Shown: piece after piece, positions 25,350 through 33,887 of the stretch | Numbering within the stretch: position 1 is the first letter of the stretch | How the letters are laid out: the number at the start of each line of letters is the position of its first letter | DNA from: Elusimicrobiota bacterium | GTDB taxonomy: Bacteria > Elusimicrobiota > Elusimicrobia > UBA1565 | Direction: 5' to 3' | Assembly: GCA_043827405.1 (NCBI GenBank) | Contig: JBDRPD010000012.1 | Location: 1-64,000 of the forward strand | DNA length: 64,000 nucleotides | Notes under the pieces: generated by a model | Seen by the model: the letters and a program-made list of their open reading frames with translations, nothing else | Told to the model about the DNA's origin: nothing | The model's database searches: none | Position numbers and translations under genes: made by a program

Positions 25350-28300
25350 ATGACAAAGCTCATCGACCCGCAAGAACCGATCGCCATCATCGGCCTCGGC
25401 AGCATTTTCCCCGGAGCTAAGAACACCGCCCAATACTGGAACAACCTCAAGGGCAAGGTGGATTCCATCATCGAGGTGCCGAAAGACCGCTGGGACTGGC
25501 GCCTGTACTACGACGCCGACCGCAGCGTGCCGGACAAAACCTATTCCAAGCTGGGCGGCTTCGTTCTGGATTTCGATTTCGATCCGCTGAAACTGCGCAT
25601 CCCGCCGACGATCGCCAAGCAGATGGACTCCGTGCAGCAGATGGCGGTGTCGGCCACCGCCGAAGCGCTCGCCGACGCGGGCTACGACAAGAAGGAATTC
25701 GACCGGGAGCGCACCGCCGTCATCTTCGGCAACGCCATGGGCGGCCCGAAAAAGGAGGAGTCCGACCTGCGGGTCTACACTTTCCGCTACCTGGACAAGC
25801 TGAAGCACACGCCGGAGTTCGGCAAGCTGTCCGCGGAAACGCGCACCGCCATTCTCACGGAAACGGAAAATGCGGTCAAGTGCGACATGCTTCCCATCAC
25901 CGAAGACACCATGCCCGGCGAGCTGTCCAACGTCATCGCCGGCCGCATCGCCAATATTTTCAACGTCAACGGCGCCAACTTCACCGTCGACGCGGCCTGC
26001 GCCGCCTCGCTCGGAGCACTGGCGCAGGCCATCAACGGCCTGCGCTTCCAGCAGTACGACATGGTGATCACCGGGGGCATCGACCAGATGATGGCGGCCC
26101 CGGCTTACGTGAAGTTCGCCAAGATCGGCGCGCTCTCTCCCGACGGCTCGCGGCCGTTCGACGCCGGCGCCAACGGATTCATTATGGGCGAGGGCGCCGG
26201 CGTCCTGCTGCTCAAGCGCCTCTCGGACGCCAAGCGGGACGGCGACAAGATTTACGCGCTGGTCCGCTCCGTCGGGGCATCCTCCGACGGCAAGGGAAAG
26301 GGCATCACGGCGCCCAACCCCAAGGGCCAGCTGCTGGCGATGCGGCGCGCCTTCGAGGGCGTCGATTATACGCCGGCCGACGTCGGCCTGCTGGAGGCGC
26401 ACGGCACCTCGACCGCCGTCGGCGACGTCGTCGAAGTCCAGGCCGCGGTAGAAGTCTTCAGCGGCGCGCCGGCGGGCTCGATCGCCCTCGGCTCGGTCAA
26501 GTCGCAGATCGGCCACCTGAAGGCGGCAGCCGGCGCGGCCAGCCTGGTCAAGGTCGCCCTCGCCCTGCACCACAAAAAGCTGCCGCCGTCGATCAACTTC
26601 CAAACCCCGAACCCCGGCATCGACTGGGGCAAGTGCCCGTTCTACGTCAATACCGAAATGAAGGACTGGGACGCGGGCGGGAAAACGCGCCGCGCCAACG
26701 TCTCCGCCTTCGGCTTCGGCGGCACCAACTTCCACATCACGCTGGAAGAAGCCAATGCATCGTCTATGGACTGGAAGCCGTCGCTGTCCGCGGCCGCCGC
26801 GCGAACCCTAACTGCGGCCGCCGCCGCCCGACCGCCTAGAGACCTCGATCCGTCGCTCGGCGGCGAGGCCTTCTTCGTACGCGGCGACAGCGCCGATGCC
26901 GTCTTCAACAAGCTCGACCGACTTCGCCGCACGGTGCCCGAAGGTCCGCTGACCCGCTTCGCCCGTGAAACGCGCGACGCGCAAGGAGATACCATTCTGG
27001 CGATCGCGGCCGAAAGCGGCGCCAAGCTCCGGGAGAAGATCGACCTCGTCTTCAAGCACAAGGACCAGGACATCTGGGCCAAGACGCCGATGCCGTTTAA
27101 GCCCAAAGCCATACGCCCCGGCAAGGCGCTCAAGAAGCGCCCGAAGATCGCCTTCCTGTTTCCCGGCCAGGGCTCGCAGTATGTGGACATGATCAAGGAC
27201 CTCGCGGAGAAATACCAGGTGGTCGCCGACACCTTCGAGGAAGCCGACGCCATCATGGAGCGCATCATCGGCGAGAAGCTCACCGACATCCTGTTCACCC
27301 AGCCCGGCGAAGGCGAGGCGAAGTACAAGGAGCGTCAAGAGCGCATCAAGCAGACCGAGATCACCCAGCCCGCCGTGCTCACGGCGGACGTGGCGCTGCT
27401 GCGGCTGATTCGCCGCTACGGCGTCGACGCCGACGTGGTCGCCGGACACAGCCTCGGCGAATACGGCGCGCTGGTCGCCGCCGGCGTCCTGGAGTTCGAG
27501 GACGCCCTGCTGGCCGTCAGCGCACGCGGCAAGGAGATGGCCGGCGTCAAGGTCGACGACAACGGCAAGATGGCCTTCGTCGCGGCGCCGCTGGAGAAAG
27601 TCGAGAAGATCCTCGAGGAAATCGACGGCTACGTCATCCCGGCCAACAAGAATTGCCCGACCCAGACCGTGATCGCCGGCCGCTCCCAAGCCGTCGATGA
27701 AGCGGTCAGGCGCTTCAAAGCGGAGGGGCTGCAGTCGCAGACCATCGAGGTCTCCCATGCCTTCCACTCGAAGATCGTGGCGCCCGCCACCGAAGCCTAC
27801 GGCCGCTTTCTAAAGACCCTGAAGATCTCGGCGCCCAAAATCCCCGTCAACTCCAATGTCACGGCGGGACACTACCCGAAGGATAAAGCGAAAATCCGCG
27901 ACCTTATGACGCGCCAGATATCCGCTCCGGTAGAGTTTATTCGCCAGGTCGAGCGGATGTACCAGGACGGCGTCCGCGTTTTCATCGAGGTCGGTCCCAA
28001 GCGGGCCCTCACGGCCTTCGTCACCAGCACCCTCGCCGACAAAAAAGATGTCGTCATCACCGCGACCAATCATCCCAAACGCGGCGGCATCCATGAGTTC
28101 AACGACCTGCTCGCGACCTTGGCCGCCGCCGGCATCGAGCTCGACTTGTCCAAGGCCGACCTCGACGCAAAAGACAACCTCTACACCCTCGATTACGCCG
28201 ACTGGGCGGCGCGTGGAGGCGCAAGCAAGCCGAGCGCAAGCGAGGCGCCGGCAGCGCCCGCGCCCGCGGCAATCCCGACCGCCGCCAACGCGGAGCTCCT

Positions 28301-33887: not shown

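Follow-up and report, generated by a model that had tools for sequence, protein, structure and literature searches.

A 64,000-nucleotide stretch of an Elusimicrobiota genome (assembly GCA_043827405.1, contig JBDRPD010000012.1; hereafter the window) encodes on its forward strand, as a single intact open reading frame (ORF; 25350..33887), a 2845-residue megasynthase. It carries two ketosynthase domains (KS1 and KS2), a malonyl-type acyltransferase (MAT), four acyl carrier proteins (ACPs), a ketoreductase (KR) and a dehydratase (DH), in the order KS1-MAT-KS2-ACPx4-KR-DH. Judged from its sequence and genomic context, this protein is probably a primary iterative fatty acid synthase of type I (FAS I) served by an enoyl reductase (ER) that acts in trans or is fused to it. 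The architecture is already known, having been catalogued in 2011 by Shulse and Allen (PMC3098273; statements on cited papers, here and below, refer to the parts of their text that were available). An active KS2, replacement of the type II pathway (FAS II), threonine carriers, a dehydrogenase-type reductase and an archaeal spread, all of them predictions of this study, were not found in print by our literature searches. Whether everything holds together as one system we regard as evenly balanced: it would be a new ACP-dependent FAS I with phosphopantetheine on threonine and, in many bacteria, a reductase of the acyl-CoA dehydrogenase (ACAD) type fed by electron-transfer flavoprotein (ETF). It would be the lone FAS in part of the Elusimicrobiota and in Bradymonadales, and in its complete single-chain form would supply bacterial-type acyl chains to a whole Thermoplasmatota-labelled order and to many Asgard archaea labelled Heimdallarchaeota.

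The distribution of FAS II genes supports a role as primary synthase. KS2 is present in 51 of the 151 genomes of the phylum, and FabF over the TIGR03150 cut-off occurs in none of these 51 carriers versus 88 of the 100 other genomes (both sets were rechecked). FabF-bearing relatives have the gene order rpmF-plsX-fabH-fabD-fabG-acpP-fabF-rnc (from ORF lists, and from tblastn for L119); all six carriers examined have rpmF-plsX-fabG-acpP-rnc, with fabH, fabD and fabF excised. What was lost, two KS and one MAT, is what the front half of the megasynthase supplies. In five further carriers no match to the FabH family was found, and the synthase is retained in genomes of only 1.4–1.9 Mb.

The genome that contains the window (G000, 98% complete) follows the same pattern. 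It has no stand-alone FabF or FabB among its seven KS matches, the strong sets being the megasynthase and a pfa cluster on contig C40 and the two weak ones 40-residue matches; it has no FabH except OleA, and no FabD, FabI or FabK, while FabG, AcpP, FabZ, PlsX, PlsY and PlsC are retained. A general loss of PlsX in carriers was considered and is not seen (143 of 151 genomes over cut-off). Of 56 long loci, 54 include a carboxylase gene, which in actinobacterial and acidobacterial loci is a single-chain acetyl-CoA carboxylase (ACC) of ~1850 residues, an architecture that, compared as such, feeds de novo fatty acid synthesis in Saccharopolyspora (PMC6491548). The single-chain ACC (about 1850 aa, with an ACC central region) is eukaryote-like and lies directly downstream of the synthase in L043 (15598-21213) and other loci.

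In the cycle we propose, the synthase would stand in for FAS II in condensation and malonyl loading. Malonyl-CoA made by the carboxylase would be loaded by the MAT, and a dedicated phosphopantetheinyl transferase (PPTase) would arm the tandem ACPs on threonine. Both KS1 and KS2 would condense, most likely splitting the work by chain length or into priming versus elongation, a division that we hold to be as plausible as its opposite; two active KS domains sharing chain lengths are known from polyunsaturated fatty acid synthases (PMC9702510). KR would then reduce and DH dehydrate, with enoyl reduction in trans, here most likely by an ETF-fed dehydrogenase of ~550 residues; relatives would use a FabI encoded next to the synthase or a FabK-like fusion. 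Without a thioesterase, the saturated chain would pass to PlsX/PlsY/PlsC or to AcpP for membrane lipids. We infer every one of these activities, and the product, from sequence; if they are right, they would explain how lineages without FabB/F, FabH, FabD and FabI build membranes.

The source of the reductase needs to be accounted for, as the window copy, with no ER, does not hold all elongation activities in one polypeptide. Pfam detected no ER or thioesterase family in the megasynthase, and no ER, thioesterase or pfaB/C/D among the 37 window proteins scanned. The first-pass annotation had reported such genes to be missing nearby, which is right for the window; contig C40 of the same genome has a separate pfaD-pfaA-pfaBC-oleABCD cluster (L001:7689-15667, L002:677-12165), which has serine ACPs and resembles Type I of Shulse and Allen. 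Among relatives, 35 of 275 proteins, Heimdallarchaeota-labelled and Bradymonadales forms among them, have a FabK-like domain fused to their N-terminal end, and the fused proteins run ER-KS-MAT-KS-ACP-KR-DH-PPTase. FabI is the gene upstream of the synthase in G074 and G126, the two carriers without the long dehydrogenase, and a FabI-like gene adjoins the synthase in two Asgard-class loci that have no fusion. Since relatives carry an ER as a fused domain or as a neighbouring gene, the cycle would be fully reducing. The polyunsaturated product proposed at first pass is disfavoured by the same observation and by the lack of a FabA-type dehydratase/isomerase in the protein; FabA-family matches in the genome lie only on contigs C40 and C34.

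For most bacterial carriers the candidate reductase is the ~550-residue ACAD-family protein, which occurs in 49 of the 51 carriers, in none of the 88 FabF genomes and in 37 of 40 other bacterial carriers (copy in this genome, G000:C53:178570-180183). Of the 64 loci with KS1, 43 have its gene immediately upstream of the synthase, and the remaining 21 comprise 16 archaeal-type loci, one from Elusimicrobiota and four cut off at the contig start; it is upstream in every acidobacterial, actinobacterial and eremiobacterial locus with room there, and beside etfB-etfA in all three carriers checked. The queries used found no FabI, FabK or FabV in 48 of the 51 carriers, and by this elimination the long dehydrogenase is rather likely to act as the enoyl reductase. 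Complex prediction weakly supports its pairing with the ACP: the score was 0.59 against 0.05 for the best of three controls (contact agreement at least 92%, partner pLDDT 83), in a range (0.60 or below) that also held 18 of 157 solved complexes and both of the mismatches that passed (2 of 215). If so, this would be a new type of enoyl-ACP reductase; those enumerated in PMC9260719 include no ACAD-type enzyme.

The same protein could instead oxidise, desaturating the chain so that the product is unsaturated. Its fold is that of an ACAD, and its neighbours in acidobacterial and actinobacterial loci are ETF and an iron–sulfur oxidoreductase, the usual layout for oxidation. We nevertheless consider this role unlikely, since the dehydrogenase is absent where FabI adjoins or a FabK-like domain is fused, the familiar reductases are missing from nearly all carriers, and the NCBIfam family that it matches best, although far under cut-off, is a reductase (AcrC, acryloyl-CoA reductase). 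Counting against the assignment as enoyl reductase are the PfaD of this genome, which could be the reductase there; G140, which has FabI plus the long dehydrogenase; and the archaeal-type genomes, where the long dehydrogenase is found in 0 of 10 and no reductase was identified in the Thermoplasmatota-labelled order. Two genomes of that order have a short AcrC-like acyl-CoA dehydrogenase about 7 kb or less from the synthase (L149:17881-19029, L153:1979-3115), a candidate for the reductase. The Asgard reductase domain had no significant match to PfaD, and an apparent dehydrogenase–synthase fusion in L040 was discarded as evidence because its junction looks frameshifted.

The FAS II operons of the phylum themselves end in acd-etfB-etfA (G000:C84:1465-7640; L119-L123, L126, L127), and several of their EtfA proteins have an N-terminal ferredoxin motif. 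Of the 151 genomes, four have FabI, none has FabK over cut-off and five have FabV-family matches. In this phylum FAS II, too, may depend for its enoyl-ACP reductase on a short acyl-CoA dehydrogenase working with ETF.

The family extends well beyond Elusimicrobiota, with 441 matching stretches across the species-level genomes and, of 7999 protein clusters scored, 3336 at E ≤ 1e-60; the relatives bear Elusimicrobia and Acidobacteriota labels, the closest being labelled Elusimicrobia. Both Bradymonadales-labelled genomes examined have the synthase, in two contig-end pieces with a fused FabK-like domain and PPTase, and neither has FabF over cut-off. Bradymonabacteria are reported to lack FabB/F and FabI/L (PMC7460792), and the order fits as a second, putative case of FAS II replacement.

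In archaea, FAS I seems not to be encoded and FAS II not in full, and ACP and ACP synthase are missing from nearly all of them (bioRxiv 10.1101/2024.07.05.601840). KS2 nevertheless matches 35 of 38 genomes in the Thermoplasmatota-labelled order of G155, where fused PPTase, carboxylase subunits and BioY surround the synthase. Archaeal aIF-2alpha lies on the synthase contig in G155, archaeal PINA-type ATPase and uL16 genes lie nearby in G152, and PlsC-family genes occur in five of five genomes of this order. In the Heimdallarchaeota-labelled class of G159, KS2 matches 47 of 83 genomes, at least one match being a stand-alone KS2, while a block of 24 consecutively listed genomes has none, and the protein is often a FabK-like-KS1-MAT-KS2-ACP-KR-DH-PPTase chain of 3350–3600 residues. 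These loci are flanked by ACC genes, biotin ligase and an alpha/beta hydrolase, include archaeal Nre and archease genes and, in G235, have a PlsY gene; the hydrolase may release the chain. As for other observations at archaeal loci, type III (Cmr) CRISPR-Cas genes lie just downstream of the G235 synthase (L181:1774-9570), and the Thermoplasmatota-labelled G152 has a 6037-residue frame with five carrier domains (G152:C1:340000-360000), probably a nonribosomal peptide/polyketide synthase.

No report of an Asgard fatty acid synthase was found in a literature search that covered main text, for part of the Asgard literature; the main text of PMC10307638 does not mention fatty acid, polyketide, lipid or acyl carrier, and OleABCD is reported in Hodarchaeales only (bioRxiv 2024.07.04.601786). 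The ACP-independent synthase of Sulfolobus also serves fatty acid synthesis in archaea, but by a thiolase-based route (bioRxiv 10.1101/2024.07.05.601840), whereas the archaeal relatives of the megasynthase have ACPs, PPTase, KS, KR, DH and often ER. If the predictions hold, the family offers a concrete, expressible enzyme with which to approach the old question of whether fatty acids can be made by Asgard archaea, a question that touches on the change from archaeal to bacterial lipids at the origin of eukaryotes.

Outside the phylum, exclusion with FabF fails: FabF scores over cut-off in 25 of the 40 bacterial carriers there, and near it in more. The synthase is therefore not the sole FAS there, and its product may be different or additional. 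This raises the alternative of an accessory ("secondary") synthase for a special long-chain or hydroxylated lipid, with FabF-less carriers importing their membrane fatty acids. Published descriptions lean the same way: a 2011 category that very probably is this family with KS2 mislabelled (Type R, compared below by its description rather than by named sequences) is described as a secondary lipid cluster (PMC3098273), and Bradymonabacteria are proposed to obtain fatty acids from prey (PMC7460792). Decay of the synthase in one genus, described below, and an acyl-CoA ligase and ABC importer in the window also agree with it. Against an accessory role stand the FabF exclusion within the phylum, the clean excision of fabH, fabD and fabF, retention in small genomes and the co-located carboxylase, and we find it quite improbable. 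Both roles can hold, in different phyla.

Several further observations weigh against a primary FAS. The 51 carriers come from five families, all in one class, so their lack of FabF may go back to one or a few events, and 16 of them also have free-standing KS homologues that score below the FabF cut-off (E 1e-61 to 1e-105). In one genus, KS2 is dead or deleted in six genomes, none of which has FabF; some relatives presumably live without a working synthase, by scavenging, and the window itself encodes an ABC importer cluster with a long-chain acyl-CoA ligase next to it. PlsX is under cut-off in G000, G088, G140 and G126. Its sequence is divergent in the family of the window's genome and in G126 (L115:2318-3358; G000:C84:6399-7412).

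The four tandem ACP domains (30093..31346) are near-identical and each read LGID-T-VKQAE, with threonine, which the first-pass annotation missed, at the phosphopantetheine site (codons at 30210, 30546, 30876 and 31230) and no serine near helix II. This threonine aligns with the attachment serine of PigH, of Plasmodium ACP and of the genome's own PfaA. Contigs from two public DNA runs covered the locus in all 30 bins with no indel listed; the ACP repeats are not crossed by any one contig, and their number, four, therefore depends on the assembly.

Threonine predominates in the family. Counted with a hidden Markov model (HMM) that also detects serine ACPs, it occupies the site in 224 of 226 domains from 84 proteins (the other two are truncated; ten duplicate loci and two pfa proteins were dropped), in 287 of 288 domains among the best 120 database hits and in 323 of 339 domains of a set spread at 50% identity. 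The motif DTVKQAE does not vary among 71 aligned domains, a set that was chosen by that motif. Synthase carrier domains are the sole ones in four of five archaeal genomes, and the fused PPTase is the sole PPTase in two of two; in three of three bacterial carriers a PPTase sits beside the synthase in addition to an AcpS-like one. Phosphopantetheine on threonine is the simplest reading of these data and, in our view, very likely correct; it would be a new post-translational linkage. Annotation tools that insist on serine would mark these ACPs as dead and their genomes as fatty-acid auxotrophs.

Some data speak against threonine modification. The remaining domains of the spread set include 12 with serine and four with other residues, with four proteins serine-only and two mixed, and two Asgard-class genomes have Ser-Thr-Ser sets. 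Literature searches found no report of threonine phosphopantetheinylation. E. coli AcpP with threonine for Ser36 is reportedly not modified by AcpS, which weighs against the idea unless the adjacent PPTase is specialised. The threonine domains might accordingly be unmodified docking modules, a discrete serine ACP carrying the chain in trans, and AcpP is indeed retained in all six carrier fab operons. This alternative is hard to reconcile with the four archaeal genomes that have no other carrier domain, the two that have the fused PPTase alone, the second PPTase of the bacterial carriers and the strong conservation of the threonine, and we give it little credence.

KS1 (25374..26753) is a PfaA-like type I ketosynthase with C217/H351/H389 in the motifs DAAC, EAHGTST and GHLK. 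KS2 (28323..29855) is FabF-like: its triad C1247/H1395/H1435 (NAAC, SHETYTP, KGFTGH) lines up with that of FabF, K1430 is intact, and SHETYTP is the counterpart of HxTSTP in FabF, retaining the His-Lys-His and both threonines of the FabF motif. All 104 aligned rows share the Cys, both His, the Lys, SHETYTP and the Glu beside the first His; about nine of the rows are second copies of a locus, and six weak matches, three degenerate KS2 among them, had been removed beforehand. Both triads and the SHETYT motif had been read correctly at first pass, and the insert suspected there is, in a structure model built from 55 sequences (pLDDT 89), a long helical hairpin on a KS fold (28797..28955; model residues 165-217, mean pLDDT 89) that varies in sequence.

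The closest solved folds to the KS2 model are KS-alpha and FabF (Z 43-46), followed by type I KS domains (Z 32-40) and, much lower, β-ketoacyl-ACP synthase III (KAS III) and thiolases (Z about 24-26). A FAS I-type KS was rejected because similarity is lower than to FabF (mycobacterial Z 31 and yeast Z 29 vs 43). Identity to FabF is only about 20-26%, with a score far below the FabF cut-off, and KS2 appears to resemble FabF, in triad and Lys on a FabF fold, without being one. In a 63-row KS tree it forms its own clade with support 100, apart from Pfa KS and chain-length factor (CLF), which argues against a KS1 duplicate or a descendant of the Pfa CLF; the tree comes from a quick search (the careful one was unfinished), its long branches are unsure and it held no fungal or mycobacterial FAS rows. 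With its invariant catalytic residues and separate clade, KS2 is therefore no CLF, as the first pass had argued.

One genus shows what happens when KS2 decays. Three of its genomes have a KS2 without Cys or His, yet intact KR, DH and dehydrogenase; in three others KS2 is deleted, and gone too are the KR Tyr, the DH His and the acyl-CoA dehydrogenase. This suggests, for one lineage only, that KS1 can run the reductive loop without KS2, and it ties the dehydrogenase to that loop, again in this lineage only. Two degenerate-KS2 rows sit among intact copies in the tree. The reduced synthases (L097-L099) are KS1-MAT-ACP with dead KR and DH, the PPTase and carboxyltransferase still being present. Several Asgard-class genomes have stand-alone KS2 paralogues of about 500-550 residues (L185:9455-10942, L188:8569-10224).

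The first-pass proposal that KS2 joins two acyl chains head-to-head like Pks13 or OleA, or frees the product, so that a branched or very long lipid results, could draw on the invariant Glu, the helical insert, the missing thioesterase and the stand-alone paralogues, but is very improbable given a fold and sequence nearest to decarboxylating FabF/KS-alpha with the FabF motif residues kept, a score of 417.7 bits against a cut-off of 2100 for the Pks13 model (NF040607), a single acyltransferase, the genome's own oleABCD, and the loss of KS2 in three genomes that leaves KR, DH and dehydrogenase intact. The first pass had named a dispensable KS2, or an architecture shared with a characterised synthase, as grounds for dropping its proposal; the dead or deleted KS2 in six genomes of one genus goes part of the way there, and the 2011 catalogue has the architecture, though without a product. 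Both Pks13 and OleA share a Cys-dependent condensing fold with KS2. A thioesterase domain is a feature of Pks13; the megasynthase has none, has KR and DH instead, and its KS2 is far from the KAS III/thiolase type, with no PF08541 (KAS III/OleA-type) match at the locus.

Literature searches turned up no characterised synthase with this domain order, as the first pass had anticipated, and among the papers found PMC3098273 alone describes the family. Its Type R comprises one pfaA homologue with KS-MAT-CLF-ACP(3-6)-KR followed by a PPTase, with an ACC subunit in one member and no product assigned, and is reported from Elusimicrobium (Elusimicrobia), Koribacter and Solibacter (Acidobacteria) and Roseiflexus (Chloroflexi). 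The megasynthase shares its order of KS, MAT, second KS-like domain, three to six ACPs and KR, as well as the downstream PPTase and adjoining ACC subunit. In Type R, however, the second domain is labelled CLF, whereas KS2 keeps its full triad; DH is present here and unlisted there, and archaeal members are unmentioned. By the written CLF definition of Type R, the megasynthase is no strict member. Shulse and Allen name Types M and S, not Type R, as candidates for replacing FAS II, and their main text does not mention threonine or serine (PMC3098273).

PfaA and the megasynthase have in common the KS-MAT-tandem ACP-KR-DH frame, a reductase in trans and two active KS, and the megasynthase scores 997.8 bits against the PfaA model TIGR02813, narrowly under its cut-off of 1010.1. 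Unlike Pfa systems, it has an extra in-chain FabF-like KS and threonine in four of four ACPs (serine in the genome's PfaA), and its cluster lacks KS-CLF, FabA-type DH, PfaB and PfaD. Fungal FAS has a flavin mononucleotide-type ER and a fused PPTase. Relatives with a fused FabK-like reductase and PPTase hold all steps but release in a single chain and in this are like fungal and mycobacterial type I FAS, from which the megasynthase differs in domain order, two KS, tandem ACPs and a KS2 nearer to FabF. It would thus work like a FAS I outside the fungal, animal and Corynebacterium–Mycobacterium–Nocardia (CMN) families, FAS I being named only for CMN bacteria and eukaryotes (PMC13691511). The Swf synthases of sponge symbionts were set aside for their different domain order.

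Pfam domains on the ORF agree with the order first annotated: two KS N-terminal stretches, MAT at residues 602-929, PP-binding domains, KR at 2268-2490 and PKS-type DH at 2577-2842. The MAT (27144..28145) has GHSLG and HAFH, the latter of which we take to indicate malonyl specificity, and is the genome's top FabD match. Next to the KR (32145..32819, catalytic Tyr2462) lies a probable structural pseudo-KR stretch (about 31497-32099), assigned by position and weak similarity to short-chain dehydrogenases/reductases. The DH (33042..33884) has His2598 and, at the Asp position of PfaA, Glu2766 (33645-33647); the genome's PfaA DH has Asp, and all 27 family rows shown have Glu. The synthase is followed on the same strand by the Sfp-type PPTase (33884..34594), which overlaps its stop, and by an acyl-CoA carboxylase carboxyltransferase subunit for malonyl-CoA supply (34587..36179), the three being consecutive genes with overlapping stops and starts. 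In an alignment of 47 PPTase sequences the motifs were those of ordinary Sfp-type enzymes, with no clear threonine-specific signature. A sigma-70-like promoter match (25207..25235, forward strand; 9 of 12 positions with extended TG, a consensus match only) lies upstream of the operon.

Elsewhere in the window, an oligopeptide-type ABC transporter gene cluster and, after it, the long-chain acyl-CoA ligase together take up 41311-55362; the ligase ORF has a 325-residue N-terminal stretch without family assignment. A row of multiheme cytochrome c genes, one carrying a cytochrome b domain, occupies 572-8837 together with a gene for a 706-residue protein weakly similar to GSU2204. A single ORF at 19389-21005 joins HemD (uroporphyrinogen-III synthase) and inositol monophosphatase domains.

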